A DNA stretch of 64,000 bases, taken from contig DAIQMY010000002.1 in the NCBI GenBank assembly GCA_036788695.1, positions 130,394 through 194,393 on the forward strand, written 5' to 3'. This stretch comes from Candidatus Levyibacteriota bacterium. GTDB lineage: Bacteria; Patescibacteriota; Microgenomatia; Levybacterales; GWA1-39-11. Under the pieces are notes generated by a model, which did no database searches, had not been told where the DNA came from, and saw nothing but the letters and a program-made list of their open reading frames with translations. Below are positions 11,997-31,737 of this stretch, piece by piece. A program made the translations under genes and the position numbers. Within the stretch, counting starts at the first letter, position 1, and each line of letters begins with the position of its first letter.

Positions 11997-14900
11997 TTAT
12001 TGAAAATAATCAGCAATGCTTAGTCCGTAGTCATTTGCAAGTTTTTTCATAGCTTCCGTATTTCTAACCATTAACTGAAGACTTAATGGTACTTCAAGAT
12101 TTTTTGCGGCTACCTTTTCCATAATGGATCTGAGTAACCCTATTCTGTCAATGTTCCCAGAAGTTACTTGCTTTGCATACTCATTTTTTACGCTAAGCAT
12201 TGATGCTAAGACTCTTGTCCTCTCAATAATATTACAGTGGTTGTGCTCAAAAACTCGTCCCAGAAACGCTTTTGTAAAAGATTCATAATCACCGTCTCGA
12301 ATGAGATTAGAGATAACGTCTATATCTGCTTGACTTGCGGAAAGATACATATTGCGATCAATAACTCCTATTTTTTGAGTTTCCTCATCTACAACAAAAT
12401 TTCCTACATGTGGGTCAGACTGTAATAGGAACCTACTGTTGCTGTTTTGTAGGGCAGGATTTTGCATTTGATAAGCATAAAGTTTTAAAACAGAATCAAT
12501 TACTTCTCTCTTGTTATCTATTGGAACCGATGTGTCATTTAATAGTTGATTTAAAGTTCTTCCCGTAGCTCTTTCTTCGACTTTAAATTTATAACCATTT
12601 TTTATTGTTTCGGGAGCATAAAAAATATCAGTCCCTATTTGTTTGTTTACACCGGTAATGTTTGTTGCAAACGCAGCGTCGTCATCTAGAAATGTGGCAT
12701 CTCCTATGTCTGCTAGGCACCATTTCTGAGCGAGATCAACTACTAAAAGACCTGCTTGTACTTCTTTTTTGAATTTCCCTTTTTCTCCAACCTTTTCAAG
12801 TGTGTCATGAGCCAATTTATGGGATTCTCCAATTAGCGCTGCTGCATTTGGATTTAATAGCTTAATAACTACCTCTCTATTTCCCTCATCTGTAGTAAGT
12901 GTAGCTGCAATAGTTGTATTAAGGCTTCCTGCGCCTATAATCTCATGTACGGTTGCACCTTTCAAAACTTCTGCTACTTCTGGATTACTTTCTGCCATTT
13001 TCCAGACATTGTCCCACATCCAAAACTTATTGAGCCCCGGATTCTTGTCAAAACTGGAGGAAAGTCTTTCCCGAATCTCAGGTGACAGAGGATAAAGTTG
13101 TGTTAGTAGTTGTAGTGCTCGCACTCCTACGGCTCCGCTTGCTTCAACAGCTCCAACTATTGATTCAATAGCTGGGTCAACTTTTGCTTCTAGATTATCA
13201 ATTTCTGCCCCTTCCTCTTTTATATCTAGAATTTGTTTTATACGTTCAATAGTAAATCTATATTGTTGTTCACTTTCCTGAGCCAATTTAAACATGAGGG
13301 AATCTGGATGGTCTTGATACAACACCCCAAACTCTGAAACATCAGAAGTCTTTCCGTGAATTGCCTTATTGAGTCCTACTATCGCTTGTTCAGAGAGTTC
13401 ATCTTTAAATGTTGTATACGTTTTTGTTTCTGAATGGTATTGAAAATTTTCATTTACAACTTGAAGAAAGTCTACCCTATTTGAATCCAATCCTTTAAAT
13501 AAAAGCGGAGCCATCATTTTTGCGCCAGGAAAAGCCATGATCTTGGCATCTCCTTCGGTAATCGCTGTTCTGATAGATGACTCTAGAAAGCCATCCTTAA
13601 CACCTAAAGAAGAAATTAATATATCAGCTAGTATTTGTCTGTTTTCAGGTTTTGCAAATGCACCATATTCTTCAACAAGCGCTTTATGTGCGAGTGCAAG
13701 ACGTTCCGGCTCACTTCTTGTTTGAAGGGTTTTTACATATTCAGAAAAAGTTTTGAAGCGTTCACGTCCGCTTTCTGAAAATGCAAATCTTCCTGTTTGT
13801 ATGTCAAATTTTACCCCTATTTCTTTTTCATGATATTCTGAAGCAGGAATAAAAGTATGAGCCCAACCTTTTGCGTATTTTGTAGAAATTTCTGTAGCTT
13901 TATTTCCTCCTTGAGCCGTTGCAAAAAGCTCAGCAAATTTAAAGGAGGCCTTGGATGATATAAGGTCTGCACTAGCAGCTTTTACGAGTCCTGGTGAAGT
14001 TCCAGCAAGATATTTGTCAAAATTATCTTCAATCATAGACCTAAACTTTGAATAATCGTCAATACTATCCATTTGATTAGCTATTATAAAAAGCCCTTCA
14101 GGTCCGATTCTTTCAAAATTTTCAAGCGCATAGCGTGTTTTTTCATCAAGCGAAAGCTCTCTAGAATTTAAAGTTCTTTTATCAAGAACTCTTAAAAACA
14201 TTCCCTTCTCAGATCCATTTGGAAGTGTATCTTCTATAAATTCACCTAATGCAGAAAAATCTTTTTCCGAAATGTTTCCTGAGAGAATTTTTTCTATTGC
14301 AATTCTTGTTTGCCGTTCATACAAGACCCCTCCAATTGTGTCTGAGAACTCATTGTAGGATGCAGTAAGCCTATCTATCTCATATTGGGTTTTTTTATAC
14401 CGGGCGAGTTCATTGAGGTTTGATGCGGGAATTGGAGGCATGTTTATTGCGATTTCTTGTACCGGTTTCAGATGGGAGAATTGTGTAAAATTTGAAATAT
14501 TGACAGGATTTTTTATTTGTACTTGATATATATCTCCTAAATAGAAGCCAAACTCTGGAATCCTATTATCTCTTCGCAGGTTTATCACTGAGTTAAATAA
14601 TGTTTTGGTTTCCGTGGGTGACAGAGTAGATAAAAATTGTTGATGAGTAGAGATTGTACTATTTAGAAAAGTATAGAACTGCTCAGAGTCATTTGGGAAG
14701 AGAGTGGACGCTGTTGCAAGTTTTATTTGAAACTTTAGAAAATCTCCATTTTCATTCGATTCATCTACTGTTTGATTTGTTTTATGTTTCTCTCCGGAAA
14801 TTGTAGCTCTTATTGCAAATTCCGATCCTAAAGTAAGCGCGTCTATTTTCTCATTTATATAATTGGCTATCGTTAATCTTTCCTCATCCGTTGCATGATG

Positions 14901-16631
14901 AATGCTGAAATTTTCACTAAATAAATTTAACACATCAACAATATTCCCAATTTCGCGCGTGTCCATTTGCAAGGAGGTTTTTTCAATTTTTTTAAATGTC
15001 GAATCTATTAATTCAGTAGTTAGTTTATCTGGAGTTTGCTTTTCTTCAAAGAAGACATTGTTAAATATTTCCTTCAGTCTTATCTTTGGGTTTATGCTGT
15101 CATGCGTAGTATTCAAATTTTCCAAAGGAAAGTTTGACTTAGTAGGTATAATTCCCATGTCTTTTGCTTTCCTTAAAAAAGTTTCAACTTCCACTTCCTG
15201 AAGAGTTTTTTTTTCACTATTTGTACTGGTTATGTACTTTAACTCTGCAAACCTAAGTATAGAATTTCCTAAAAGCTTTCCGCATTGATTATTTTGCTCC
15301 TGTACTGTTTTTAAAACTTTTAAAAGAGCATCTTCGGTAATAGGAATGCTTGTTCCTTTAATTATTCCACTGTCTTGGTCATACATTTCACGAGTTAGCA
15401 CTTGAAGAAAGTCTATTGGTGCAGAACTGTCCCTAAAGTGTTCCTCCGGTGGGTTGTGAAACAGAATGTCTAACATTTTACTTCCCTGACCCTCTGCTTC
15501 ATATTTGGCTAAGCGCTCTGCTATTGAGACAAGTTCTTGAGGGTTATTAATTGTTGTGAAGGGAGCGTTTTCGTAAACGAATTGAGAGTGGAGAATAAAC
15601 AGAGAGATTTCAGCATCAATAGGTGTAAATCCGGAATGTGCGAGAGTTTGGGTAATATATTTTTCAACACATTTTACATTCTCTAGTTGGAACCTCATAT
15701 ATTTATTTTCTAAATCATAGCCTCTAGAGTTTCTAAGGACTGATATAGTTGTAGTAAGTAGGTCCTTGTGGTGCAGCTTAGGTAGTGCTTCCAATAGTTT
15801 TTTAGAGTTTTGGGTGTTCCAATAAGTTAACTCATTTATTATTTCCATGTTGGTTTTACGAGCGACTCCGTCTAGTAGTTTACTTTTTGGGGTAAGGTTA
15901 TTATTGCTAGTTTCATAGTCTCTAACTAAATGAATGCCTACATTTTCAGAGGCTCTGGCAAGACCTCCCTGGTGTAAAGTTCCTCCATGAACGCCTGAAA
16001 TTTTTTCTATTGCCGTTCCAAACGCAAGAGTGTTGTATCCTCCTTTTTCCAGTAGTTTTGGAGCGTCTTTATTATCTGCAGTCATCTCATGTAAACGGCC
16101 TACCGCCATTTGCGTTGTTCGGTTATCATGTGAGTGGGCATGTCTAGAAGTCTCATTTATGAGATGCCCAAGTTCATGAGCTAAAACAGAGGCAATTTCG
16201 TCTTCTGAGTCTAATGAGTTGAGTAAAGATTGGGAGACAAAGATTGTTCCTTCTTGAAAAACAAATGCATTTGGGTCTTTTCCTTTATTCATAACAACTA
16301 TTCGCGTTTTCAAATCAGAGTTATCCATAAGGCGGTTAACTATGTGGGTAAGATGCTCTGTCTTTGGTGTATTTATTTCAAGGTCATGAGTTCGCGAAAG
16401 ATACTCAAAATCTTCTTCAAGCCCACCATGTGCATGACCATCATGGTCTTGTTGTTCTATCTGCGGTTTAAGAATAGGAGTTTTTGAGGGATCAGATTCA
16501 TTGTCTATTTTATCTCTTTGAAAAATTTTTTGAACAATTTCCCTATGAGCGTTAATCGACTGTGTTTTCTGGTGGCTTCTTGAGTGTTTTTTATCAATTG
16601 CTTTTTGAGGTTCTTGAATTTGTGTTTCCAT
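11997..16631 (-). CDS. giant multidomain protein: N-terminal M48-like zinc metalloprotease module plus C-terminal UbiB/ABC1-like atypical kinase module
   Basis: A 1544-aa uninterrupted ORF. Residues ~150-215 read NAFVFQEG...VLAHELGHL...LHEMTADN (HExxH + ExxAD, M48 signature). The C-terminus reads EIIGAGSLNTTIAATL..DEGNREVVIKLLNP ... SDPHVGNFVVDEE..IGVIDRNMY, matching the ABC1/UbiB kinase lysine and catalytic-loop motifs. It has no N-terminal signal peptide and a His-rich N-terminus. Confidence 0.8.
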   Translation of the reverse strand: METQIQEPQKAIDKKHSRSHQKTQSINAHREIVQKIFQRDKIDNESDPSKTPILKPQIEQQDHDGHAHGGLEEDFEYLSRTHDLEINTPKTEHLTHIVNRLMDNSDLKTRIVVMNKGKDPNAFVFQEGTIFVSQSLLNSLDSEDEIASVLAHELGHLINETSRHAHSHDNRTTQMAVGRLHEMTADNKDAPKLLEKGGYNTLAFGTAIEKISGVHGGTLHQGGLARASENVGIHLVRDYETSNNNLTPKSKLLDGVARKTNMEIINELTYWNTQNSKKLLEALPKLHHKDLLTTTISVLRNSRGYDLENKYMRFQLENVKCVEKYITQTLAHSGFTPIDAEISLFILHSQFVYENAPFTTINNPQELVSIAERLAKYEAEGQGSKMLDILFHNPPEEHFRDSSAPIDFLQVLTREMYDQDSGIIKGTSIPITEDALLKVLKTVQEQNNQCGKLLGNSILRFAELKYITSTNSEKKTLQEVEVETFLRKAKDMGIIPTKSNFPLENLNTTHDSINPKIRLKEIFNNVFFEEKQTPDKLTTELIDSTFKKIEKTSLQMDTREIGNIVDVLNLFSENFSIHHATDEERLTIANYINEKIDALTLGSEFAIRATISGEKHKTNQTVDESNENGDFLKFQIKLATASTLFPNDSEQFYTFLNSTISTHQQFLSTLSPTETKTLFNSVINLRRDNRIPEFGFYLGDIYQVQIKNPVNISNFTQFSHLKPVQEIAINMPPIPASNLNELARYKKTQYEIDRLTASYNEFSDTIGGVLYERQTRIAIEKILSGNISEKDFSALGEFIEDTLPNGSEKGMFLRVLDKRTLNSRELSLDEKTRYALENFERIGPEGLFIIANQMDSIDDYSKFRSMIEDNFDKYLAGTSPGLVKAASADLISSKASFKFAELFATAQGGNKATEISTKYAKGWAHTFIPASEYHEKEIGVKFDIQTGRFAFSESGRERFKTFSEYVKTLQTRSEPERLALAHKALVEEYGAFAKPENRQILADILISSLGVKDGFLESSIRTAITEGDAKIMAFPGAKMMAPLLFKGLDSNRVDFLQVVNENFQYHSETKTYTTFKDELSEQAIVGLNKAIHGKTSDVSEFGVLYQDHPDSLMFKLAQESEQQYRFTIERIKQILDIKEEGAEIDNLEAKVDPAIESIVGAVEASGAVGVRALQLLTQLYPLSPEIRERLSSSFDKNPGLNKFWMWDNVWKMAESNPEVAEVLKGATVHEIIGAGSLNTTIAATLTTDEGNREVVIKLLNPNAAALIGESHKLAHDTLEKVGEKGKFKKEVQAGLLVVDLAQKWCLADIGDATFLDDDAAFATNITGVNKQIGTDIFYAPETIKNGYKFKVEERATGRTLNQLLNDTSVPIDNKREVIDSVLKLYAYQMQNPALQNSNSRFLLQSDPHVGNFVVDEETQKIGVIDRNMYLSASQADIDVISNLIRDGDYESFTKAFLGRVFEHNHCNIIERTRVLASMLSVKNEYAKQVTSGNIDRIGLLRSIMEKVAAKNLEVPLSLQLMVRNTEAMKKLANDYGLSIADYFQ

Positions 16632-16722: not shown

Positions 16723-17793
16723 ATGAAAATTGTATTCATTACGAGCGCTTATTACCCGTCTATTGGAGGTGTTGAGACGCATGTGCGCTCCGTTGCGCGC
16801 GAATTAGTGAAGCGTGGTCACAAGCTTACTGTCATAACGGAAAATAAGCAGTCAAGGGGAAAGAGTGATAGTAAGGCTAGTAATTTAAAAAGTAACGTAT
16901 TATCAAGCCAATTTATAAGAAAAAAACTAGATCAAATTGATATATACTATTTCAAATTTGGTCAAGATACTTTTTTTAAAAAATTTAACATTTGGTATCA
17001 GCTTTTTAAAAACCGTGAGTTGTTTAGCTCAGCTGACATAATTCATGCGCACGATGTCTTCATTTGGTATCTTCCTTTACGGTTTTTTTATTGGAATAAA
17101 AAAATATATACTACATTCCATGGACATGAAACAGTTTTTCCTCCGACTGAAAAGGCCAAGTTTATAAGACGTATATCTGAGAAGCTGTCGTATGGGAATA
17201 TAATTATTGGTGAGTTTATAAAAAAATGGTACGGTACATATTCTAATCATGTGACGTATGGTGGAGTAAACAAGCGGTTACGAGACAAAGTTGCAATTAA
17301 AAAAAGAAATTCTGTAATAAAGTTATTGCTTATTGGAAGACTAGAGAAGGATATAGGGGTACACGTATACAAAGAAACATTGCGACAACTCACTGAGCGT
17401 GGAGTAAAATTTACATTTACTGTCTGCGGTCAGGGATCATTGGGTTCAGGATTGGAGCAGTATGGAGAGGTTTTAGGATTCGTAAAAGATGTTACACCGT
17501 ATATTAAAAAAGCAGATATTGTTTTTGCTTCCTCGTATCTTTCAATGCTACAAGTTTTACAGTTAGGAACTCCAGTTTTTGCAACGTACACAAACCCATT
17601 AAAACATGATTATTTGCGCGACTCACCATTTGAAAAATATATAACTATCTCTGACAGTGCAGAAGATTTGGCTCGTAAAGTAGCTATATTTAAGCCAAAT
17701 CTTAAGAAGCTCCAAGATGGAGCAAAATGGGCAAACGGAGAAACCTGGCAGAAGGTAGCGGATCTGTACGAAGATTTATGGACGACAAAGTAA
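16723..17793 (+). CDS. glycosyltransferase family 4
   Basis: N-terminus MKIVFITSAYYPSIGGVETHV (GT4 N-domain). The C-terminal GT-B domain is present. Confidence 0.85.
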   Translation: MKIVFITSAYYPSIGGVETHVRSVARELVKRGHKLTVITENKQSRGKSDSKASNLKSNVLSSQFIRKKLDQIDIYYFKFGQDTFFKKFNIWYQLFKNRELFSSADIIHAHDVFIWYLPLRFFYWNKKIYTTFHGHETVFPPTEKAKFIRRISEKLSYGNIIIGEFIKKWYGTYSNHVTYGGVNKRLRDKVAIKKRNSVIKLLLIGRLEKDIGVHVYKETLRQLTERGVKFTFTVCGQGSLGSGLEQYGEVLGFVKDVTPYIKKADIVFASSYLSMLQVLQLGTPVFATYTNPLKHDYLRDSPFEKYITISDSAEDLARKVAIFKPNLKKLQDGAKWANGETWQKVADLYEDLWTTK

Positions 17794-18701
17794 CAGTAAT
17801 TACTACAGTATTAAATGAGGAAGATTCAATTCTAACATTTCTTGATTCAATACATAATCAGACAAGAAGGCCCGATGAGGTTATTATTGTAGATGGAGGA
17901 AGCACTGATAATACTGTAAAGTTAATCCAAAGTTCTAAATTCACTCTAATTCAAAAAAAGGGGAACAGATCCACAGGAAGGAACACTGCCATTAGGGCGA
18001 GTTCAAACAATATAATTGCTGTTACAGATGCAGGATGTATTTTGGATACATATTGGTTAGAGCGAATAGTTGCGCCCTACATGAAAAAAGATATAGATGT
18101 GGTTTCTGGATTTTATAAGCCTCTTGCTACAACAATTTTTCAAAAATGTTTAGCTACTTATACGTGCACAATGCCAGACAGGCTTGATAAAAAGAATTTC
18201 TTACCATCCTCCCGATCTGTTGCTTTTAAGAAAGAAGCTTGGGAGAAGGTAAAAGGATATCCGGAGAATCTAGATACCTGTGAAGATTTAGTTTTTGATA
18301 AGAGATTGAAAAAAGCAGGTTTTGCATTTGTAATGGTGCCCAATGCTATTGTTTATTGGCCACAGCGCGAGAACATCTTTCAAGCGGCCAGACAGTTCTA
18401 TGGTTATGCGCGGGGTGATGGACGTGCTCGCTATTTTCGACTTTCCACTCCATTTCTTTTTGGCCGTTACCTTTTAGGAGTACTAATTGCTTCATATGCG
18501 CTTCTGACAAGCTTTTATCTGTTGCAAGCAGGTATTGTTGTTGCTTTCTTGGGATATCTCATCTGGGCTGTTTACAAGAACTCAAAATACATAAGAAGTT
18601 GGAGAAAATGTATATACCTGCCTCTTTTGCAGCTTGTTTCTGATGTTGCAGTTATTACAGGAACAACTTTAGGATTTATTACTTCTTTGAGAAAAGAGTA
18701 G
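17778..18701 (+). CDS. glycosyltransferase family 2 with C-terminal TM helices
   Basis: VTVITTVLNEEDSI...VIIVDGGSTDNT and DAGCILD motifs are present (the DxD region). The likely ATG is at 17778, 16 nt overlapping the upstream gene. Confidence 0.8.
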   Translation: MDDKVTVITTVLNEEDSILTFLDSIHNQTRRPDEVIIVDGGSTDNTVKLIQSSKFTLIQKKGNRSTGRNTAIRASSNNIIAVTDAGCILDTYWLERIVAPYMKKDIDVVSGFYKPLATTIFQKCLATYTCTMPDRLDKKNFLPSSRSVAFKKEAWEKVKGYPENLDTCEDLVFDKRLKKAGFAFVMVPNAIVYWPQRENIFQAARQFYGYARGDGRARYFRLSTPFLFGRYLLGVLIASYALLTSFYLLQAGIVVAFLGYLIWAVYKNSKYIRSWRKCIYLPLLQLVSDVAVITGTTLGFITSLRKE

Positions 18702-20157
18702 AATAGTGCCTCTTTCTGTATTGAGTTGTATAAAATTCCTTCACAACTAATTTTGCTCCCTCATAGCTACTATAATATGGGCTATCGTATGGTTTTTTGT
18801 AGTCTCCATTTTGAATGTGTGTGAGTACCTCAATTATGCCAGACTCAAGAGAATGTGTACTTGCGAAATGAAGAGTTTTTTTAATTTTTAAAAAAGATAT
18901 TTTGTAATTTGTTGCTGTATTTTTTCTTTCATATGAAATGTTAATTTTCTTTTTATCCTCTACAGTGAGTTTTACTAATTTTGCCAAATTTTTTAATTGG
19001 ATTCGTTGCGTATCATCTCCAACGTTGAAGATTTGCCGACTAACTTTTTCAAGTGGTGCCTCTAACGTTTTTATAAATGCATCTGCAATATCTGCAACAT
19101 GAATAAATGACCTCCATTGATTTCCATTTATGACACGTATATCTTTTTTGTAGTAGGCTTGTGCTGTGAATAGATTTGCAACAAGATCAAACTTAGGTTT
19201 TCGAGAATGACCAAACGCTGTTGAGATTCTAAGTATGGTTGGGTGAAATGAATCATGTGTGTCATGCAGTATTTCTCTTTCCGAATCTAATTTTGTTCTG
19301 GTGTATATTGAAGTGGGTTTTACTTTACTATTTTCATCAGCTACTCTCAGTCCAGATTCGTAAACTGCAGTTGTTGAAGCAAATATAAATCTGGAAATAC
19401 CAAGTGCCTTCACCGTTTCCTTTAGCATTTGAGTGGAGATTATATTAACATGTCTCGTCAAATTTTCATCTAGCGCTGCAGCAGGTTCTCCTACTATTCC
19501 TGCAAGATGAATTACTCCAGAAGCTCCTAAAAGCGCCCTTGTAAGAGTAAATGGGTCGGTGATATCTCCTTGTATTAACTCAAGCTGTTTTGCTGGTTTT
19601 ACATTTTTAAAAACATCTTTACCATATATAAACTTATCAATTACCCGTACAGCATAACCGCGTTGTAAAAGCTTTTCTACTAGAACGGTGCCAATAAACC
19701 CGCCTCCGCCAGTAACCAAAATTATTTTGTTTTTACTGTTCATATTTTTTTGTGAAATTGAGTATGCGCTTTTTTTAACGTTTAGAAAAATTCTCGGAAG
19801 TATTAAAAAGATATAGGTAAATATTGAAGAAAAAGAAACAAGTAAAAAATTTAGACGAAGAAGGTATAAAATAAATATAGCTAATAAGAAAGAACAAAAT
19901 AATACAAATATCTTTTGTTTAATTGGGCTGAGTCTATATTCTGAGTATAGACCAAAAAGAAGATTTCCTAGTGTAACAATAATCGGAAACAAAATGAGAA
20001 ATTGAATACTTATTTGTATACGTATAGAAAGTAACAATAATGAAACAAGGGAAGAAATGGCTACTGAAGCAGAAAAATCGTAAATAGCACGGCTTCTTAC
20101 TGGGTGATATATAATATTTTTGATTTTTTCAATTATGTTTTCCATATATGTTATCAA
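18679..20157 (-). CDS. membrane-anchored NAD-dependent epimerase/dehydratase (extended SDR; PglF/WbpM/CapD-like architecture)
   Basis: About 130 aa of N-terminal TM helices, then a Rossmann motif ILVTGGGGFIGTVLVEKL and YTRTK (the YxxxK catalytic motif). Confidence 0.75.
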   Translation of the reverse strand: MITYMENIIEKIKNIIYHPVRSRAIYDFSASVAISSLVSLLLLSIRIQISIQFLILFPIIVTLGNLLFGLYSEYRLSPIKQKIFVLFCSFLLAIFILYLLRLNFLLVSFSSIFTYIFLILPRIFLNVKKSAYSISQKNMNSKNKIILVTGGGGFIGTVLVEKLLQRGYAVRVIDKFIYGKDVFKNVKPAKQLELIQGDITDPFTLTRALLGASGVIHLAGIVGEPAAALDENLTRHVNIISTQMLKETVKALGISRFIFASTTAVYESGLRVADENSKVKPTSIYTRTKLDSEREILHDTHDSFHPTILRISTAFGHSRKPKFDLVANLFTAQAYYKKDIRVINGNQWRSFIHVADIADAFIKTLEAPLEKVSRQIFNVGDDTQRIQLKNLAKLVKLTVEDKKKINISYERKNTATNYKISFLKIKKTLHFASTHSLESGIIEVLTHIQNGDYKKPYDSPYYSSYEGAKLVVKEFYTTQYRKRHYSTLFSKK

Positions 20158-20878
20158 TACATATTCGCATAGGGTATTTTGAGTAACTTATAAAAGTTGC
20201 AAGTGAGTACTTAAATTTTGATTTGCCACTTTTCCTTACGGTAAGAGTTATTGGAATCTCTGCAAAATTTCCGCCATTTTTTTTAAGATAATATACCTCC
20301 TCAAGAATATGTGCAAAACCTGGCTCTTTGTATCTTACGTTTTTTAATTTTGCGAGTTTAACAATTCTAAATCCATTTGTATAGTCATGTATTCCTAAAC
20401 GAAAAAATATGCGTGCAAAAATGTTTCCCGCAAGTGAAGGTAAACGCCTTTTTATTGGAACTGTTTTAGCACTTCCTCCACGAATATATCTTGATCCTTT
20501 GACGCAGTCATACCCATTTTGTATTTTTTTTAAAAACAAAGGAATATATTTTGGATTATTAGTCAAATCTGAATCCATGATTAACGCATATGTGTAGTTA
20601 TCTTTTATAGCTGCCCGAATGCCAGCTGCTATAGCAAGCCCATATCCCTTATTGCGCGTATAGGAAACTACGTGAAGCGTCTGTCTGTACATCTTTTTTG
20701 CTTTAGTTAAAACATCAAGGGTAGTATCTGTGCTACCATCATTTACTATAATAAGGGTAGATTTAATACGTATTGTCCTCAACTCTGCCATGACTGCACG
20801 AATACACTTAAGTATTCCTTTATTTTCATTATAGGCAGGGATAATAACCGCAAGAGATGCGTTTTTTTCTCTTATCAT
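20129..20878 (-). CDS. GT2 glycosyltransferase, polyprenol-phosphate sugar transferase (Dpm1-like)
   Basis: LAVIIPAYNE...IIVNDGSTDTT...MDSDLTNNP...VKGSRY matches the Dpm1/GtrB pattern. Confidence 0.85.
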   Translation of the reverse strand: MIREKNASLAVIIPAYNENKGILKCIRAVMAELRTIRIKSTLIIVNDGSTDTTLDVLTKAKKMYRQTLHVVSYTRNKGYGLAIAAGIRAAIKDNYTYALIMDSDLTNNPKYIPLFLKKIQNGYDCVKGSRYIRGGSAKTVPIKRRLPSLAGNIFARIFFRLGIHDYTNGFRIVKLAKLKNVRYKEPGFAHILEEVYYLKKNGGNFAEIPITLTVRKSGKSKFKYSLATFISYSKYPMRICIDNIYGKHN

Positions 20879-21222
20879 TCTCGGGTGGGTACTTTTGAGA
20901 TATCTCCTTTGTTTGAGTATTTAATTATTCTTCTGACTTCTCCCATAACCTTTGGATAAACATTATAAGGATCATGCTCAAGTTGTGGAGCCGGCAATAC
21001 GTCAAATGAAATATTGTTTCGTAAATTTTTTACAGCAGTTCGCTTTACTCTTGGTACATGGTAGTCACTTGTTATTATTGTAATATGGGATGCATCTTTA
21101 AGACTTGGGTCAGAATTTATAGAATTAAACTGTGTTTTAGTATTTGCCACTCCTGATGCCTCGGCATTATATATTTGCCTAAATTCTTCAACGAGCGGAG
21201 ATAATTCTTTATTATTATTCAT
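20875..21222 (-). CDS. DUF218 (SanA/YdcF-like) C-terminal fragment
   Basis: ITIITSDYHVPRVKRT matches the DUF218 TSxYHxxR motif. The ORF is only 115 aa and abuts wecB with no room for the N-terminal half. It is likely truncated. Confidence 0.4.
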   Translation of the reverse strand: MNNNKELSPLVEEFRQIYNAEASGVANTKTQFNSINSDPSLKDASHITIITSDYHVPRVKRTAVKNLRNNISFDVLPAPQLEHDPYNVYPKVMGEVRRIIKYSNKGDISKVPTRE

Positions 21223-21224
21223 AT

Positions 21225-22415
21225 TTATACTTTAATTTTATCATCCATAAATGAACGTTTTATAGGTAGATGATTATCTTTTGGTAAGTGTCCTCTGAGT
21301 TTTCCTTGAAGAACTCTTTTTACAATATCATTTGCAATAAGCTTTGATGACTTGCCATTACCAAATGGTTGTTTCCAGGTGGTTCCAATTATTTTGTCCA
21401 GTTTTTTTAAGACAAGTTTAGTCGGGTACATTCTAGGAAGGGAAGGGTCAAACTTTACAGTACCCTTTACATCATAAATCTCTGGTCTTTCTGTTGCTTT
21501 CCTAATATTTATACTGGGAATATTGAGAACACAAGTTTCTTCGCTTAGCATTCCAGAATCAGTTATAACTGCCTTGGCATGAGTTGCTAGTATTAATATT
21601 TCTTCGTAGCCAATAGGGTCTACCATTAAGAGATTTTTTGGTAATTTTATATTCCGTTCTTTTATTACTTTTTGAGTCCTATAGCTTGCTGGAAAATATA
21701 CAGGTAATTTGGCTTCTCTTACTAACTTTAATATGTTATCAAATGAGGTGTCTATGTGTACATTTTCCCGTCTGTGACATGTCATAAGGTAGTAATTTCC
21801 GCTTTCGATCATTCTTTTTTTAAAAAAGAGTGGCGTAGCTTTTTTTTCAATACTATTTTTTCTTTTGTAATAAAATTCATTTAATATGTCTACAATGGGG
21901 TTACCGGTGACAATTATATTTTTAGGATTGAGGCCTTCAGCAATTCCCCTGTTCTTATACTCATGGGCGTAGGTATAAATAATATCAGATAGGTGATCGA
22001 TCATAGTTCTATATTTTTCTTCCGGCATTCTCCAATCATAAGAATGCCAACACCCCTCAATGTGGATAATCGGTATGTTTAATTGAGCAGCCGCAATGCA
22101 TCCTGCGGTTGTATTTGTGTCTCCAAAAAAAGCAATAGCATCAGGCTTAATTTTTACCAGTGTTTTTGAAAGTTTAGCAATGAGTTGGGAGGCAATTTCA
22201 GCATCTGTATCACCTTTACAGAAAAGATCTATATCCGGTTTTCCTACCTTCAGTTCTCTAAAAAAGACATCTTTTAAATTATCTTGGTAGTGCTGTCCTG
22301 ACCATACAAATATAAAGTTTATTTTTTGCTGCTTTCTCAAGTACCTTAGAATAAGCGCAGGTTTTATAATATCCGGTCTAATGCCCGCAACAAAAACAAG
22401 TGTTTTTTTCTTCAT
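21225..22415 (-). CDS. wecB: UDP-N-acetylglucosamine 2-epimerase (non-hydrolysing)
   Basis: VFVAGIRPDIIK, SGQHY and FGDTNTTAGCIAAAQLNIPIIHIEGC are present; the fold is conserved. Confidence 0.85.
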   Translation of the reverse strand: MKKKTLVFVAGIRPDIIKPALILRYLRKQQKINFIFVWSGQHYQDNLKDVFFRELKVGKPDIDLFCKGDTDAEIASQLIAKLSKTLVKIKPDAIAFFGDTNTTAGCIAAAQLNIPIIHIEGCWHSYDWRMPEEKYRTMIDHLSDIIYTYAHEYKNRGIAEGLNPKNIIVTGNPIVDILNEFYYKRKNSIEKKATPLFFKKRMIESGNYYLMTCHRRENVHIDTSFDNILKLVREAKLPVYFPASYRTQKVIKERNIKLPKNLLMVDPIGYEEILILATHAKAVITDSGMLSEETCVLNIPSINIRKATERPEIYDVKGTVKFDPSLPRMYPTKLVLKKLDKIIGTTWKQPFGNGKSSKLIANDIVKRVLQGKLRGHLPKDNHLPIKRSFMDDKIKV

Positions 22416-23689
22416 TTTGGTAGAATCTTAACAGAAGGCAGAGGAACTATAAATTGTCCACCTCTTTTTATATATTCGCTGTTTCGCAGCAGCACTTCAT
22501 TTACAAATGGCCAAGCAAAAAGCACAGCATAGGTAGACTTAGGGTTTTCTAAAAGTTTTTTAGATGAATATATTTTTTGATGTGTTCCTGGCATATAGGA
22601 ATTTTGTTTCATAGGTGAGTCGTCAACTACTAATTTAACACTGTCTGCCGTTAGATTGCAGTAGTTCATAATTACAGTTCCTCTTCCCGATGCTCCATAT
22701 CCAATAATGTTTTTATTATCTTTTCTTAATGTGTCAATTGTTTTTAAAAGTGATTTTTTTGTTTTCTCAATACGTTTAGCAAATGAAGTATATGTTTTCA
22801 TTTTAGTAAGCCCCTGTTTTTTCTCAGCTGTCTCAAGTAGTTTTACAGATTTATTTATTTTACGCTTACCTGATTTTTTATTTTGGACGTAGTACATAAT
22901 TGATCCTCCGCGAAGAGGTGTCTGGGAAACATCAAATATTTCCATGTCATAAATTCCAAAAAATTTTTTTAATGAAAGTAAGGAATAATAAAATTGATGC
23001 TCATGGTATATCATGTCATACTGCATTTCTTGTATTAATTTTCCTAAATAGTGTACTTCAAACGCAAGATATCCATTTTTTTTCAGAACTTTTTTAATAC
23101 CCCTCATCACACTGTGCATGTCCTCAATGTGTGCCATAGAGTGAAATGAATATATGGCGTCAGCCCTTCCATAGTCTTTTGCAATTTTGCTGCCTACGTT
23201 TTCTGTAAAAAATGTGTTTAAAATTGGCTTACCTTTTTTTATGAGAGGAATAGTTATGTTTTCAGCCGGGTCAACTCCTAAAACTGTATATCCTTCATTT
23301 GCCAGAGCATCTAGAAATGTCCCGTCATTACATCCGATTTCTATAATAAATGCTTTTTTTTGATCAAGATATTTTTTTACTCCCTTTGCTGTTCTATTAA
23401 AGTGTTCAACAAGCGTTTTTATAGTAGATGAGTAGTAGAAATAATCTTTGAATAGCGTCTCAGGAGGAATAGAAACATTACATTGAAGTAAATAACAACT
23501 TTCGCAAAAGTTTAGCTGTAAGGGGTAAAGTTTTTCATTTTCTAACACTTTTTGTGGCGTATTTTCTTTAAAAAAGCCACCAGCTAGTGGTACGTAACCT
23601 AAATTTAAAACTTGCCTAACCTTATGACTGTTACAGAATCTACAAGTTAAAAAATATGTATGAATTCCTACGTTTATATATTTATGCAT
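22412..23689 (-). CDS. SAM-dependent C-methyltransferase with N-terminal Zn-ribbon (NDP-hexose C-methyltransferase, TylCIII-like architecture)
   Basis: N-terminal C-x-x-C pair region (CRFCNSH...CESC) and a SAM motif IIEIGCNDGTFLDAL. The C-terminal domain matches the three-part architecture of sugar C-methyltransferases. Confidence 0.65.
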   Translation of the reverse strand: MHKYINVGIHTYFLTCRFCNSHKVRQVLNLGYVPLAGGFFKENTPQKVLENEKLYPLQLNFCESCYLLQCNVSIPPETLFKDYFYYSSTIKTLVEHFNRTAKGVKKYLDQKKAFIIEIGCNDGTFLDALANEGYTVLGVDPAENITIPLIKKGKPILNTFFTENVGSKIAKDYGRADAIYSFHSMAHIEDMHSVMRGIKKVLKKNGYLAFEVHYLGKLIQEMQYDMIYHEHQFYYSLLSLKKFFGIYDMEIFDVSQTPLRGGSIMYYVQNKKSGKRKINKSVKLLETAEKKQGLTKMKTYTSFAKRIEKTKKSLLKTIDTLRKDNKNIIGYGASGRGTVIMNYCNLTADSVKLVVDDSPMKQNSYMPGTHQKIYSSKKLLENPKSTYAVLFAWPFVNEVLLRNSEYIKRGGQFIVPLPSVKILPK

Positions 23690-24134
23690 TTTTTAGCCAA
23701 ATTTCATTTCCCCAGTAATCTTCGGGGAATCTATAGTCATCTTCTTGGGACTGCGCAAGTGTTTTATCAGAGTAAAATATTAATTGCGTATTTTTAGTTA
23801 ATGCCTTAAAGCCGTTAGCGTATCCTGGTGGAATATACAGCACTTTTGGATCATCTTCTGTTAGCAACACTGATGTAATGCGTGCATTTTTTGAAGGCGT
23901 AGTACTATTATCAATTGGAATAATGCACACAAGAGCTTTTCCCTGGGCAAGATAGACATACTTTGCTTCTTTCATGTGACCGTGAAATGCTCGTATATCA
24001 CCTTTATTTTTCGGCATGACTACATAAAAACGTTTAACATGTTCAAAATTAAAGTCGTTTACAAATCTTAATGTTCCCGTACTGTCTATATGAGTTCCAC
24101 CTTGAAGAAGTTTTGGAGATTTTAGAGTAGTCAT
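23682..24134 (-). CDS. WxcM/FdtA-like sugar 3,4-ketoisomerase (cupin)
   Basis: A ~150-aa cupin with HVKRFYVV...RAFHGH (conserved His pair), as in FdtA/WxcM C-domains. Confidence 0.6.
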   Translation of the reverse strand: MTTLKSPKLLQGGTHIDSTGTLRFVNDFNFEHVKRFYVVMPKNKGDIRAFHGHMKEAKYVYLAQGKALVCIIPIDNSTTPSKNARITSVLLTEDDPKVLYIPPGYANGFKALTKNTQLIFYSDKTLAQSQEDDYRFPEDYWGNEIWLKNA

Positions 24135-24167
24135 ATATTTAAATTCTTGGTTATAATATAATCGATA

Positions 24168-24443
24168 ATGACCATTAAATCAAGAAGATTTGAATTTTCC
24201 CAAATGAAAAGAAAATATATTGTATTTTTGCTATCCACATATGTTTCCATCTCACTTGTTTTTTTTGCAGAGTTTAGAAAAATAAGGAATTTGTTTCCCC
24301 CAGCAGGAATAGGCACTGATAATATTGTAGGATTTGTTCAGTTTTATGGGTACCCGCCATTATTTGACTTAGTATTTTTCTGTTTTCTGCTTTCAGCTCC
24401 TATAGGTATTTTGTTTGCAATCATTCTTATTTTAAAAAAATGA
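24168..24443 (+). CDS. small membrane protein
   Basis: Two TM helices. ATGA overlap with the downstream gene start (translational coupling). Confidence 0.4.
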   Translation: MTIKSRRFEFSQMKRKYIVFLLSTYVSISLVFFAEFRKIRNLFPPAGIGTDNIVGFVQFYGYPPLFDLVFFCFLLSAPIGILFAIILILKK

Positions 24444-26356
24444 AAAAAATAGCACAGATATTTTGGAAGTATAAGGACTACGTTTTGATTTCTATTTTCT
24501 TGTTTATCTATTATTTCCCTAAAATTATCTACACTTGTAATCAGTACAAGGAACTTATTTTTGACTCACAGAATTTTATTGTGTGGGATTACGCGAAAAG
24601 TATTGGGGTTATTCCGTTTAAAGATATATTTTTTCCTTACGGACTTTTCTACTACTACAAAGATCAAAACGTATTTCTTACGTTTCTATATTTCTTTTTG
24701 ATATTATTTCTTTTTGTTGTTATTTACAGAGCAATAAAATATTTTTGGAAAAATAGCTTTTTAAGTTTTTTATTATTTGTTTTACTATTTTTATTTATAG
24801 AGCATATAACGGGAATTGATACCTTTGCAAGGTATGCAATAGCAGTAGTCGGGGTGTTACTGTTTTCATTAAATGTAGTAAGGCAAAAGGTTATTTTAGG
24901 ACGCGAGCTGTTTTATAGCGGGGTTTGTGTTTCTCTGTGTCTTAGTTTTATCCCAGATCAAGGAGTGTATCTTTTATGTGTGATACCGCTTATTACAGCA
25001 GTACATACAATACTTATTAACCACAAGACAAAAAATAAATACGTACTCTTATCATATTTATCACTTTTTTATGGTCTAGGGCTTATTTTGGGGCTAATCC
25101 CAGGGATAGTATACCTAGTACACACAGATACGTTTGTGTCCCATATTAGTCATTTGAATTTGCTTTTCAATATTGCAGATTACGCAAAGGCACCCTACAT
25201 CTCTACCTTAAAATCAAAAGACGAAATACTCATTCTCAGTGCTCTCATATGCTCTTTCACGTATTCGATTTATTCTTTTATCTTTTCAAAAAAACCTGAA
25301 AGAGCGTTTGTTATTTTTGCAATTAGTCTCCTATTAATTATGGTTGAGCAAAAAAGTGTTATGCGCTCTATAAGCACATCTCTTACCTTCATCGCGTTTT
25401 TACAAGTTATATTTCTATCATCAGCTTTAGTGAATAAAAAAAAGCTTATGAGTATAGCAGAAGTTGGTAAAGTAACTGTTTTATTTGTACTGTTGTATGC
25501 CTTTGTGTTTTATGTAGGACTTACACCTGTCTATAGACTAAAAACAAATGAAGATAAATGTGTTCGTGTTCAGAATTTTTTGTCATTAAGGAATCAAAAA
25601 AAATATATGAGTGTTGTGTCTGAAATAAAAAAAGACACAAATAGTACTCCTAGAATTTATAGTTTTCCGAATGATCCAATATTTTATATGTTGTTTCACC
25701 AGAAACCTCCGTACTTTTTGAATATCTATGACGCTTCGTCTGAGTCTTCTCAAGAAAGACAAATAGAATATATAAAAAAGATGCGTGCAGATTATGTTAT
25801 TTACAACACATCCACATACGCAACGCAAGATGGGGTACCTGATATTATAAGAGGGAATTATCTAATAAACCATCTTCTTACCCATTTTACTTACTATAAA
25901 ACTGTAGAAAATTTTTTAATTTTTAAAAAAGCTAGATTAATCTCAGATTTTACACGAAACCAAGAAGTTTATAAGTATTTTTTCTCTATAGATTTGGGTC
26001 ATGTGCCATATGTTGAAGGAAAGTACAAAAAAGAAAGTTTTGGTATTTTAAACTTTTCGGCAATTGATAATTTTAATACCAAAATTCTAAAAGACCCGCT
26101 TGATACAAGAAACACGACTCTATTAATTTCTGCAAAAAATCATAATATAGCAGATACTAAATTGTCATTGTGGTCACACGATCAGGTTTCGCATATTACA
26201 TTTAAAGAATGTGTCTATCCGGATGTGTGCATAATTAATCTTAAACGAATACCCTTGTTCTTTCACGAAAAAAAGCTTACGCGTGTTACAATAGAAGGCG
26301 GTTATGATGTTCTTGTTTCCGCAAGAAAAATAAAAGACAAAAGTATATTTTGGTAA
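24440..26356 (+). CDS. large polytopic membrane protein with C-terminal soluble domain (GT-C-like?)
   Basis: At least 10 TM helices in the first ~400 aa, then a ~230-aa hydrophilic domain. Glycan-locus context. No motif identified. Confidence 0.55.
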   Translation: MKKIAQIFWKYKDYVLISIFLFIYYFPKIIYTCNQYKELIFDSQNFIVWDYAKSIGVIPFKDIFFPYGLFYYYKDQNVFLTFLYFFLILFLFVVIYRAIKYFWKNSFLSFLLFVLLFLFIEHITGIDTFARYAIAVVGVLLFSLNVVRQKVILGRELFYSGVCVSLCLSFIPDQGVYLLCVIPLITAVHTILINHKTKNKYVLLSYLSLFYGLGLILGLIPGIVYLVHTDTFVSHISHLNLLFNIADYAKAPYISTLKSKDEILILSALICSFTYSIYSFIFSKKPERAFVIFAISLLLIMVEQKSVMRSISTSLTFIAFLQVIFLSSALVNKKKLMSIAEVGKVTVLFVLLYAFVFYVGLTPVYRLKTNEDKCVRVQNFLSLRNQKKYMSVVSEIKKDTNSTPRIYSFPNDPIFYMLFHQKPPYFLNIYDASSESSQERQIEYIKKMRADYVIYNTSTYATQDGVPDIIRGNYLINHLLTHFTYYKTVENFLIFKKARLISDFTRNQEVYKYFFSIDLGHVPYVEGKYKKESFGILNFSAIDNFNTKILKDPLDTRNTTLLISAKNHNIADTKLSLWSHDQVSHITFKECVYPDVCIINLKRIPLFFHEKKLTRVTIEGGYDVLVSARKIKDKSIFW

Positions 26357-27591
26357 ACAATATGGGATATTTAAAGCATTCAATAAGAGGTGTAAGTTGG
26401 GTTGCCCTTCTGAGAGCGTTCACGAGAGCTTTGTCTTTTGGCAAGATCGTAATTATTGCACGGCTTTTGTCGCCTTTACAATTCGGCTTATTTGGTATTG
26501 CGTCAATTGTACTTGCGTTTATTGAAATAGTAACTGAAACAGGAATAAATATTTTCTTAATTCAAGAAAATGAGAAAGAAGTAAAAAAATATATAAGCAC
26601 TGCCTGGATCATTTCTATTGTGAGAGGATTTATCGTTTTTTTGATAATCATTATTTTCTCACCTTTTATTGTATCCTTTTTTAAGGCTGAAGGGTCATTT
26701 AAGTTAATCTTGCTTATAAGCTTTGTACCACTGATAAGGGGATTTATTAATCCATCAATAGCTCTTCTTCAGAAAGAGTTACAATTTCAAAAAGAATTTT
26801 ATTTAAAATCATTTATTTTTACAGTGGATACGATAACTGCTGTTTTGTTAGTGTATATTTTAAAATCCCCTTCGGGAATTATTTACGGTTTATTAGTTGG
26901 TGGTGTAACGGAGGTTATCTTATCTTTTATTGTTGTGTCCCCAAAGCCCTCGTTTACGTTTAATACTCAATATATACAAAAAATTTTACATAGAGGAAAA
27001 TGGGTAACAATGTCAGGGGTATTTAACTATCTCTATCATAATATTGATGATGTTTTGGTAGGTAAAATAATAAATGTAGGTTCACTTGGACTTTACAGCA
27101 TGGTCTATAAAATATCCACATTGCCTATTTCTGAAGTGGCTGATGTAGTCTCGCGCGTATCTTTTCCCGTATATGTAAAAATAGCAGGTGATAGGGCAAG
27201 GCTAAAAAGTGCTTTCTTTAAAACTGGTGTACTGGTAAGTGTTTTGTCCGTTCCCTTGGGCGTTTTCTGCATATTATTTCCAAAAGAAATAATTCTTATA
27301 GTTTTAGGTGAAAAGTGGGTAAGTGCTTCCCAAACCTTACAAGTCTTAGGCTTTTTTGGAATTATCCGCTCAATTTCAGGTACAACGTCTGCTTTGTTTT
27401 TATCAGTGCACAAGCAGGAATATGTCGCTCTTGTAACATTTGTCAGCTTCGTTGGCTTGATAATTACTATAATTCCCCTCATAAATATGTACGGCATAAT
27501 GGGAGCTGCAATAGCGTCTGTGATAGGATCTATTGTAGCATTGCCTGTAATGGCATATTTTACAGTTAAAATACTTTATGAGAAGAGTTGA
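26350..27591 (+). CDS. polysaccharide flippase (Wzx/MOP superfamily)
   Basis: A 12-TM protein with a polysaccharide biosynthesis protein family pattern (GLFGIASIVLAF...). Context supports the call. Confidence 0.7.
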   Translation: MVNNMGYLKHSIRGVSWVALLRAFTRALSFGKIVIIARLLSPLQFGLFGIASIVLAFIEIVTETGINIFLIQENEKEVKKYISTAWIISIVRGFIVFLIIIIFSPFIVSFFKAEGSFKLILLISFVPLIRGFINPSIALLQKELQFQKEFYLKSFIFTVDTITAVLLVYILKSPSGIIYGLLVGGVTEVILSFIVVSPKPSFTFNTQYIQKILHRGKWVTMSGVFNYLYHNIDDVLVGKIINVGSLGLYSMVYKISTLPISEVADVVSRVSFPVYVKIAGDRARLKSAFFKTGVLVSVLSVPLGVFCILFPKEIILIVLGEKWVSASQTLQVLGFFGIIRSISGTTSALFLSVHKQEYVALVTFVSFVGLIITIIPLINMYGIMGAAIASVIGSIVALPVMAYFTVKILYEKS

Positions 27592-31736: not shown

Positions 31737-31737
31737 A

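Follow-up and report, generated by a model that had tools for sequence, protein, structure and literature searches.

A reductase-less Levybacteria operon as a candidate pathway from UDP-GlcNAc to a lipid-carried, C-methyl-branched N-acetylhexosamine

The DNA analysed here (the window) is a 64-kb stretch (64,000 nucleotides) of contig DAIQMY010000002.1 from a Candidatus Levyibacteriota bacterium (assembly GCA_036788695.1). On its minus strand, positions 18679-24134 are occupied by six co-directional, tightly packed open reading frames (ORFs) joined by overlaps of 29, 4, 4 and 8 nt and one 2-nt gap. From the upstream end, they encode a cupin, a predicted sugar C-methyltransferase, a UDP-N-acetylhexosamine (UDP-HexNAc) 2-epimerase homologue, a DUF218-like remnant, a DPM1-like family 2 glycosyltransferase (GT2) and a membrane-anchored short-chain dehydrogenase/reductase (SDR); two membrane proteins of 91 and 638 aa are encoded divergently (Table 1). 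An original prediction, made from the letters and ORFs of the window alone, had described the six overlapping ORFs as an operon for the synthesis of an unusual nucleotide sugar, and all six were found in place.

We compared the operon with 83 non-redundant loci (L numbers below), obtained from 80 loci around the closest homologues of the methyltransferase in species-representative genomes and 7 loci from assemblies. A well-flanked subset comprised the 52 of the 83 that extend at least 6 kb on each side of the methyltransferase gene.

Enzymes and membrane proteins encoded at the locus

The methyltransferase combines a Zn-ribbon (PF08421, Methyltransf_13; 3.7e-15), a class I S-adenosylmethionine (SAM) domain (PF13489; 2.3e-21) and Methyltransf_14 (PF08484; 1.3e-46). 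In the PDB it aligned end to end with the solved sugar 3-C-methyltransferases MtmC (2e-71) and TcaB9 (1e-65), followed by an entry named 'Sugar 3-C-methyl transferase' (5t64; 2.5e-63), and O-methyltransferases reached only ~1e-5. C16, C19, C62 and C65 of the Cys4 zinc site were invariant in 25 homologues. The active-site residues mutated in TcaB9 are Tyr76, His181, Tyr222, Glu224 and His225. The last four align, with a chain offset of +2, with the conserved H187, Y228, E230 and H231; the counterpart of Tyr76 was ambiguous, F84 lying between invariant Y83 and Y85. Since MtmC and TcaB9 clearly outranked the O-methyltransferases, assignment to the TylC3/TcaB9/MtmC-type sugar C-methyltransferases stands, at the level of the family, as originally predicted; a grouping with O- or N-methyltransferases, which had been named as the test of that call, did not occur. 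Many loci of the candidate phyla radiation (CPR) hold a second, paralogous C-methyltransferase, ~32% identical to that of the window (L004, 14937-16151; L006, 2396-3655; similar places in L016, L020, L021, L024, L028 and L072). It adjoins a Wzx flippase gene in L004 and L006, and the window has no such paralogue.

The SDR has four predicted N-terminal transmembrane (TM) helices within residues 25-113, followed by a cytoplasmic extended-SDR domain. This catalytic domain scored 140.3 bits with PF01370 versus 28.2 bits with Polysacc_synt_2 (PF02719), the eighth-ranked family. Its motif ASTTAVYE...YTRTK (SSCSVYG or STCSVYG in relatives) provides a GalE-type S/T-Y-K site (T/S ... Y-TRT-K) and has no Asp/Glu acid/base at the dehydratase positions. 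Dehydratases use Thr-Asp-Lys (PglF), Asp-Glu (RmlB) or Glu (GMD) there. Based on the family scores and the absent acid/base residues, a PglF/WbpM-type 4,6-dehydratase was rejected. The best PDB matches were 6wjb (1.6e-31), which we take to be PelX, a UDP-N-acetylglucosamine (UDP-GlcNAc) 4-epimerase, and 6vo6 (2.6e-29 over the full domain), which, partly from its sequence, we take to be Cj1427. The nearest solved relatives are thus a 4-epimerase and a non-dehydrating C4-dehydrogenase, which also argues against the 4,6-dehydratase originally proposed and is an outcome that had been named beforehand as refuting it; the membrane-anchored extended SDR was borne out and its PglF/WbpM-like character was not. 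With Cj1427 the SDR shares the motifs LAxxVG..xC and FRxxTxFG...R.R.DLxxN. Its top NCBIfam match was TIGR01179 (GalE), at 113 bits against a cutoff of 262.

Cassettes of other phyla encode a soluble SDR of 315 aa that matched Cj1427 at 1.3e-42, the next match being 6e-17; on sequence it is unambiguously Cj1427-like. Cj1427 oxidises C4 of GDP-heptose without dehydration, with its bound NADH recycled via alpha-ketoglutarate, and its product passes to a cupin epimerase and a C4-reductase (PMC10680097). We propose that the window SDR is a GalE/PelX/Cj1427-like C4 oxidoreductase and the source of a 4-keto intermediate.

The cupin scored 44.7 bits with PF00908, the RmlC family (cutoff 27 bits), and 20.9 bits with FdtA (PF05523), below the 23-bit cutoff, and its best single-sequence match in the PDB was EvaD, a dTDP-sugar 5-epimerase. 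The family profile matched RmlC over the full length (7e-8) and QdtA over the N-terminal half only (9e-6), the alignments with QdtA and FdtA being confined to residues 7-72. An AlphaFold2 (AF2) model with a predicted local distance difference test (pLDDT) score of 94.4 superposed on RmlC, EvaD and ChmJ about as well as on QdtA and FdtA; Foldseek returned RmlC at 1.3e-9 (TMq 0.73), EvaD at 9e-9 and QdtA at 3e-8. H51 and H53 were invariant in 20 and in 51 homologues. K58 is invariant too, and the His base and the Lys of RmlC (His63 and Lys73) have H51 and K58 as their counterparts in the alignment. Because Pfam, the single-sequence search, the profile, the model and Foldseek all placed the protein between the classes, sequence and fold cannot decide between epimerase and ketoisomerase, and a firm assignment to either the RmlC or the FdtA type was dropped. 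The cupin fails one defining feature of each class. The cupin of the original prediction held, and it carries an FdtA-like H-x-H motif; its FdtA/WxcM-like label had to be amended.

We favour a 4-keto-sugar epimerase rather than a 3,4-ketoisomerase, because in cassettes that lack the cupin the downstream enzymes are orthologues working on a 4-keto sugar, and because none of the cassette enzymes in the surveyed loci is an aminotransferase; in the window, no DegT-type gene was found. In L006, a DegT-type gene lies ~7 kb downstream of the cassette. The 3,4-ketoisomerase step of the original prediction became less likely for the same reasons, the cupin and the SDR being replaced by an inverting 4,6-dehydratase in syntenic relatives.

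The 2-epimerase matched PF02350 (Epimerase_2) over residues 26-362 and scored 199.3 with TIGR00236, the WecB equivalog, short of the cutoff of 210.15; the wecB label given earlier is therefore right at family level. Its closest PDB entries were 4neq (3.9e-59), presumably a Methanocaldococcus enzyme, CapG (1.3e-48) and UDP-2,3-diacetamido-2,3-dideoxy-glucuronic acid 2-epimerases (8sxy; 2e-47), with other UDP-GlcNAc 2-epimerase entries far lower (~1e-22 to 1e-30). In the alignment to 4neq, GDTNT, HIE, MPEE and CHRREN are kept, and HIEGCWHS stands in place of the canonical HxEAGLR. The whole orthologue group (the window and L002-L073) reads H(I/F)EGC(W/M)(H/R)S, that is, EGCWH or EGCMR for EAGLR, and the 360-aa epimerases of FnlA-type proteobacterial cassettes retain HMEAGLRAWD. 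A change of substrate may lie behind the altered motif.

Among solved structures the GT2 was matched best by PfDPMS, the dolichol-phosphate mannose synthase of Pyrococcus, whose catalytic domain aligned over the full length (7.6e-22; residues 8-234). The next polyprenyl-phosphate enzymes were ArnC and then the sll0501 glycosyltransferase 5ekp, which we take to be GtrB; chondroitin synthase ranked between polyprenyl-phosphate enzymes over the N-terminal part only. The leading NCBIfam matches, all below equivalog cutoffs, were PgfS, ArnC, PpgS, a dolichyl-P hexose transferase and AglJ. The DXD-type motif is DSD (in MDSDL), and no TM segments were predicted. By these matches the protein is of the polyprenyl-phosphate sugar synthase type (GT-A, without TM helices), in agreement with the Dpm1-like label of the original prediction, and this type makes the suggested loading of a sugar onto polyprenol phosphate plausible.

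The DUF218-like ORF was correctly called a fragment. Compared with a 229-aa orthologue in L008, which is intact and scores 26 bits, it carries an in-frame internal deletion of 342 nt, which in the alignment sits between GGAG micro-repeats and removes the N-terminal half of the domain. The gene was present in only 3 of the other surveyed loci and is an optional extra of the cassette; L011 and L013 have longer versions, of 243-245 aa.

The divergent 91-aa protein has two TM segments and a conserved motif, VGF.QFYGYP..FD, and in 14 of the 83 loci a homologue 81-140 aa long is encoded upstream of the large membrane protein. No Pfam or NCBIfam matches were found, and with them no support for a GtrA-type flippase. 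A weak match to the N-terminus of ~900-aa members of the large-protein family (E 3e-4 in a small search) is a marginal hint that these may be fusions with a 91-aa-type protein.

The 638-aa protein is predicted to have ~10 TM helices and a soluble alpha/beta C-terminal domain of ~270 aa. Its family forms 613 representative clusters, and homologues adjoin the cassette in 19 of the 83 loci. There was no Pfam match for the protein and 36 diverse relatives, no NCBIfam match for the protein itself and no PDB match for the family profile. An AF2 model (pLDDT 65.6) gave as best Foldseek matches the GT-C enzymes AftA (2.9e-3) and ArnT (0.28), AftA at a TM-score of 0.30, and D42 in the first loop is nearly invariant in the family. 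With TM-scores of ~0.3 on such a model and the near-invariance of D42, a GT-C-like transferase is a reasonable but weakly supported guess. Outside the Microgenomates-type loci, a DUF2079 membrane protein was present in 12 loci, directly after the 2-epimerase in L038 (13369-15138) and also in L026, L027, L032, L034, L040, L042, L044, L056, L057, L058 and L073. Pfam presumably files DUF2079 in its GT-C clan; a comparison of the 638-aa family with these proteins by hhalign gave a probability of 0.35, with no detectable similarity.

Distribution of the cassette and absence of the reductase

An RmlD-like reductase of ~285 aa was encoded in 46 of the 52 well-flanked loci, mostly directly after the methyltransferase, and a 2-epimerase in 48. 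Where the 2-epimerase was a close orthologue of that of the window (28 well-flanked loci), a DPM1-like GT2 was also present in 23. These genes have hardly come together by chance: dozens of loci from many phyla share the cassette. Since it is found in CPR and at least eight other phyla, the cassette marks a widespread, uncharacterised surface modification.

The enzymes at the head of the presumed pathway alternated between loci. Among the well-flanked loci, each of the 16 with the cupin also had the Cj1427-like SDR, and 16 of the 18 with this SDR had the cupin. The SDR (18 loci) and an FnlA/PseB-like Polysacc_synt_2 enzyme (27 loci) were never found together (Fisher p ~1e-8, phylogeny ignored). 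The FnlA-like protein of the relatives scored 395 bits with TIGR04130 (FnlA) and 329 with PseB, both below cutoffs, and these scores indicate UDP-GlcNAc as the substrate.

In CPR loci otherwise syntenic with the window, the FnlA-like gene takes the slot of the membrane SDR after the GT2, and the cupin is then missing; here the 638-aa and small proteins are divergent from methyltransferase, reductase, 2-epimerase and GT2. The order with the soluble SDR (Cj1427-like SDR, cupin, GT2, methyltransferase, reductase and 2-epimerase, often with a DUF2079 protein next) occurred in Omnitrophota, Nitrospirota, Elusimicrobia, Acidobacteria, Pirellulales, Chloroflexota and Gemmatimonadota. Proteobacteria and others have the reductase, the FnlA-like enzyme and the methyltransferase followed by a 2-epimerase with the canonical EAGLR, and this cassette is an FnlABC/WbvBRD-type pathway with the methyltransferase inserted. 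The compact version with RmlD-like reductase, FnlA-like dehydratase, C-methyltransferase and canonical 2-epimerase (L029, L048 and L062-L086, from Proteobacteria, Legionella, Bradyrhizobium and others) predicts, from its genes, a C-methyl-6-deoxy-L-HexNAc in Gram-negative surface glycans.

Of the 28 well-flanked loci that hold a close 2-epimerase orthologue, 26 have the reductase; in one of the two exceptions the methyltransferase ORF is 721 aa long and may include it. The window and its 85%-identical relative L008 both lack an RmlD-like reductase, and in the window the methyltransferase gene runs into the 2-epimerase gene with a 4-nt overlap and no reductase between them. Nor was any 4-ketoreductase, 4,6-dehydratase, rmlA/rmlB or aminotransferase gene found elsewhere in the 64 kb, where Pfam scans took in most of the larger ORFs outside the cluster and returned housekeeping genes only. 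The original prediction had likewise noted that aminotransferase and reductase are absent.

At dS values of 0.6-1.4, the ratio of non-synonymous to synonymous substitution rates (dN/dS) between the window and L008 was lowest for the 2-epimerase (0.05) and the SDR (0.06), followed by the cupin and the methyltransferase (0.10 each) and the GT2 (0.12). With such ratios in two lineages without the reductase, selection has acted since its loss. The genes of the operon are under purifying selection and not decaying. The 4-keto reduction could fall to the SDR in its NADH form, to an additional activity of the methyltransferase or to the product of a gene elsewhere in the genome. For the methyltransferase there is a precedent in its best solved homologue, MtmC, which is bifunctional and acts as 3-C-methyltransferase and 4-ketoreductase (PMC10269268).

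Proposed pathway and alternative explanations

We read the operon as one pathway, the Levybacteria version of the conserved cassette, which would convert UDP-GlcNAc to a C-methyl-branched HexNAc and deliver it to the cell exterior on a polyprenyl-phosphate carrier. The probability of this reading is, in our estimate, about 0.5. From the family assignments and gene associations we infer its substrate, step order, regiochemistry and product as follows. The membrane-anchored SDR would oxidise C4 of the UDP-sugar; as it would not dehydrate C6, the 6-hydroxyl would be kept. The cupin would then epimerise beside the keto group, most likely at C5, and the methyltransferase would add the methyl group of SAM alpha to the ketone, probably at C3 as in every solved homologue. 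C4 would be re-reduced by the NADH-loaded SDR, by an MtmC-like activity of the methyltransferase or by an enzyme encoded elsewhere, and the WecB/CapG-like enzyme would invert C2. The DPM1-like GT2 would load the sugar on polyprenyl phosphate, and the 91-aa and 638-aa proteins could use the lipid-linked sugar to decorate the Wzx/Wzy-type polymer of the locus. Apparently, the general course originally predicted, from UDP-HexNAc to a branched sugar on polyprenol phosphate, is supported, and its passage from a 4-keto-6-deoxy to a 3-keto sugar is not.

The simplest reading of the alternating enzymes is that two interchangeable front ends both yield an L-series UDP-4-keto-HexNAc. An inverting 4,6-dehydratase alone would give a 6-deoxy product; a C4-dehydrogenase with a cupin epimerase would retain the 6-hydroxyl. 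A fully specified version for the window, in which the product is a 3-C-methyl (or 5-C-methyl) HexNAc with its 6-hydroxyl, made by a redox-neutral, reductase-less route and transferred by an unrecognised GT-C-like family, is in our opinion unlikely to be right in every part. In the redox-neutral route, the 4-keto intermediate would leave the SDR to be epimerised and methylated and would then return to it to be reduced.

Several points weigh against the single-pathway reading. The SDR domain is 37% identical to PelX versus 31% to Cj1427, as near to a plain 4-epimerase as to a C4-dehydrogenase. In the cupin, the position of the catalytic Tyr of RmlC (Tyr133) is F120, with Phe in at least 90% of the family, and H51/H53 resemble the catalytic His49/His51 pair of FdtA (H49 and H51 are the residues mutated according to PDB titles). 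Searches of the 64-kb window by tblastn with the reductase of the relatives found no homologue. The co-occurrence counts are uncorrected for phylogeny and come from loci chosen as the 80 closest relatives of one methyltransferase. The alternating front ends demand downstream enzymes that accept both 6-hydroxy and 6-deoxy substrates. The GT-C assignment comes from a model of pLDDT 65 at TM-scores of ~0.3, with no sequence or profile similarity behind it. The steps and the product are themselves predictions from sequence, and the product has never been observed.

Much of the same evidence would fit two modules that share an operon by chance. The cupin and the methyltransferase would act on a dTDP- or GDP-4-keto-6-deoxyhexose, made by RmlA/RmlB or Gmd from elsewhere in the genome, and turn it into a mycarose- or evalose-like 6-deoxy-C-methyl sugar; the WecB homologue, the GT2 and the SDR as a UDP-GlcNAc/GalNAc 4-epimerase would make an ordinary polyprenyl-P-HexNAc, as PgfS/PgfE or PpgS do. 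That PelX is the best solved match of the SDR, whose site is of the GalE type without dehydratase residues, speaks for such a division, as do PgfS and PpgS among the best NCBIfam matches of the GT2, the dTDP-sugar substrates of all characterised methyltransferase homologues, and EvaD, a dTDP-sugar enzyme, as best single-sequence match of the cupin. Yet the six functions travel together, often reordered, in CPR, Omnitrophota, Nitrospirota, Elusimicrobia, Acidobacteria, Planctomycetes, Chloroflexota and Proteobacteria, and neither the surveyed loci nor the window showed rmlA/rmlB. Moreover, the SDR family excludes the FnlA-like UDP-GlcNAc dehydratase and accompanies the cupin, a pattern not expected of a mere supplier of GalNAc. 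We regard a chance association as rather unlikely.

The route of the original prediction, with a PglF/WbpM-like 4,6-dehydratase, an FdtA-like shift of the ketone to C3, methylation of the 3-keto sugar and polyprenyl loading, now appears quite improbable. The four TM helices and SDR domain do reproduce the PglF/WbpM architecture, a true UDP-GlcNAc 4,6-dehydratase fills the slot of the SDR in relatives, and the cupin is of FdtA size, with its invariant H-x-H and Foldseek scores for QdtA and FdtA near those for RmlC. Against this, the SDR ranks Polysacc_synt_2 eighth, at 28 versus 140 bits, lacks Thr-Asp-Lys or an Asp/Glu acid/base and has a 4-epimerase and a non-dehydrating dehydrogenase as nearest solved relatives; the cupin is sub-threshold for FdtA in Pfam and aligns with FdtA and QdtA over its N-terminal half only. 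Cupin-less cassettes run orthologous downstream enzymes on a 4-keto sugar, and we know of no C-methyltransferase of the TylC3/TcaB9/MtmC family that uses a 3-keto sugar. Ketoisomerases are usually partnered by an aminotransferase, which is absent here. That the operon is a decaying remnant without function, its 4-ketoreductase and half of the DUF218 gene gone, could be argued from the absence of a reductase present in 26 of 28 comparable loci and from the 342-nt deletion. The remaining ORFs are nevertheless all intact with coupled overlaps, DUF218 is optional, found in only 3 other loci, and dN/dS was 0.05-0.12 for all five enzymes; on these ratios decay was rejected, and we consider it extremely improbable.

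If the single-pathway reading is true, a branched N-acetylhexosamine with UDP-GlcNAc as its precursor would add a new building block to those of cell envelopes, carried mostly by unculturable organisms. Nearly all known C-methyl-branched sugars belong to actinomycete antibiotics or to a few lipopolysaccharides. The enzymes also raise questions of enzymology, namely a membrane-anchored relative of Cj1427 and a cupin intermediate between epimerases and ketoisomerases, and a large unclassified membrane-protein family may consist of lipid-sugar transferases.

The enclosing glycan locus and comparison with known systems

The operon lies within a surface-glycan locus of ~16.7-33.7 kb (Table 1). The convergent GT4 and GT2 pair (16723-18701) belongs to this locus and also flanks the cassette in L002, and the region 26350-33692 is syntenic in L001, L002 and L004. 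Housekeeping genes surround the locus (ATP synthase, DnaE, GatAB, IleRS, FtsW, MurT/GatD and CTP synthase), and the G+C content of the window is 30-40%. NCBI lists proteins identical to the methyltransferase and the cupin under a Candidatus Levybacteria metagenome-assembled genome (CPR/Patescibacteria). The cupin and 91-aa genes are read divergently from start codons 33 bp apart (24135-24167), so both promoters must overlap one another or coding sequence. Promoter and terminator scans gave counts no higher than shuffled controls, and consensus scans of the spacer found nothing above chance.

The 742-aa protein encoded at 29508-31736 has an N-terminal GT2 domain and, in its membrane region, a PMT_2-like match of 21 bits, below cutoff; GT2 and PMT_2 matches were also found in proteins of L002 (758 aa) and L004 (734 aa). 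The 1544-aa protein is a conserved neighbour of the glycan locus (1557 aa in L002). Farther downstream lies a MurT/GatD-like pair.

Table 1. Coordinates of genes in and around the operon (positions of the window)
Feature	Size (aa)	Positions	Strand	Remarks
Protein with M48 peptidase motif near N-terminus	1544	11997-16631	-	Weak ABC1 kinase-like region near C-terminus
GT4		16723-17793	+	Pfam; convergent with operon
GT2		17727-18701	+	Pfam; convergent with operon
SDR	492	18679-20157	-	Public gene call starts at 20145, giving 488 aa
DPM1-like GT2	249	20129-20878	-	PF00535, 3e-26
DUF218-like remnant	115	20875-21222	-	DUF218, 18.6 bits
Non-hydrolysing UDP-HexNAc 2-epimerase homologue (WecB/CapG/WbpI family)	396	21225-22415	-	PF02350, 5.7e-70
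Sugar C-methyltransferase (family-level assignment)	425	22412-23689	-	Pfam Methyltransf_13/23/14
Cupin of RmlC/FdtA superfamily	150	23682-24134	-	PF00908, 44.7 bits
Two-TM protein	91	24168-24443	+	Divergent; overlaps start of 638-aa gene
Membrane protein	638	24440-26356	+	~10 TM helices; divergent from operon
Wzx-type flippase		26350-27591	+	Pfam
SAM methyltransferase		27578-28417	+	Pfam
GT4		28414-29511	+	Pfam
GT2 with weak PMT_2 match	742	29508-31736	+	Pfam
GT2		31738-32481	+	Pfam
Wzy_C/O-antigen-ligase-like protein		32478-33692	+	Pfam
MurT/GatD-like pair		48091-50123	-	Mur ligase with MurT_C domain; CobB/CobQ-type amidotransferase

Neither the cassette nor a C-methyl HexNAc was found described in the searchable open-access literature, where C-methyltransferases linked to enzymes of UDP-GlcNAc and 3-C-methyl sugars were looked for; this is weak evidence of novelty. 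By analogy, the operon would work like a hybrid of the Cj1427/Cj1430/Cj1428, FnlABC/WbvBRD, TylC3/EvaCDE and GtrB/ArnC/PpgS systems.

Modification of the capsular heptose in Campylobacter jejuni employs a cupin C3/C5-epimerase of the Cj1430 type and a C4-reductase of the Cj1428 type. As in this Cj1427/Cj1430/Cj1428 pathway, the cassette has a Cj1427-related SDR, an RmlC-fold cupin and, in the relatives, a separate C4-reductase, and the 4-keto sugar would be made without removing the 6-hydroxyl. Unlike that pathway, the substrate is presumably a UDP-HexNAc and not GDP-heptose, and a C-methyltransferase and a 2-epimerase are added; the SDR of the window is membrane-anchored and equally similar to PelX, and the window has no reductase.

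The pathways to UDP-L-FucNAc and UDP-L-QuiNAc (FnlA-FnlB-FnlC, CapE-CapF-CapG and WbvB-WbvR-WbvD) resemble the syntenic relatives in their FnlA/PseB-like dehydratase, reductase and 2-epimerase, with UDP-GlcNAc as the implied start. CapG, FnlC and WbvD invert C2 of 6-deoxy-L-HexNAc sugars, and CapG is also a close solved relative of the 2-epimerase of the window. The cassette differs in the inserted C-methyltransferase, in the SDR and cupin that replace the FnlA-like enzyme in the window, and in the EGCWH motif of the 2-epimerase; no cassette protein reaches the equivalog cutoffs.

With the branched-deoxysugar modules of antibiotics (TylC3/TylK/TylC2, EvaC/EvaD/EvaE, TcaB9 and MtmC/MtmTIII), the cassette shares the C-methyltransferase family, including Zn site and catalytic residues, and the trio of methyltransferase, RmlC-fold cupin and 4-ketoreductase, the last only in relatives of the window. 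Those modules act on dTDP-2,6-dideoxy or amino sugars of actinomycete secondary metabolites, whereas the cassette belongs to a surface-glycan locus and includes a UDP-HexNAc 2-epimerase and a GT2 of the lipid-carrier type.

The DPM1-like GT2, adjoined by a large multi-TM partner with a soluble C-terminal domain and by a small membrane protein, is reminiscent of three-component extracytoplasmic glycosylation (GtrA/B/C, ArnC/ArnT, PpgS/Rv3779, GacI/GacL, CsbB/YfhO and PgfS/PgfE/PgfM); like PpgS, the GT2 of the window has no TM helices. Unlike in these systems, the 638-aa partner belongs to no Pfam family and has no profile similarity to DUF2079, PMT or YfhO, and the 91-aa protein, unlike the small component of GtrA/B/C, is not GtrA-like. 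With PglF, WbpM and CapD the SDR shares the N-terminal four-TM anchor and the cytoplasmic SDR domain, but its catalytic domain is GalE-like (PF01370) and without the dehydratase acid/base. The chemistry of the enzymes is thus precedented throughout; novelty would lie in the predicted sugar, in the way the enzymes are combined, in the variant that lacks the reductase and in the unclassified membrane partner, and these findings extend known chemistry and overturn none of it.

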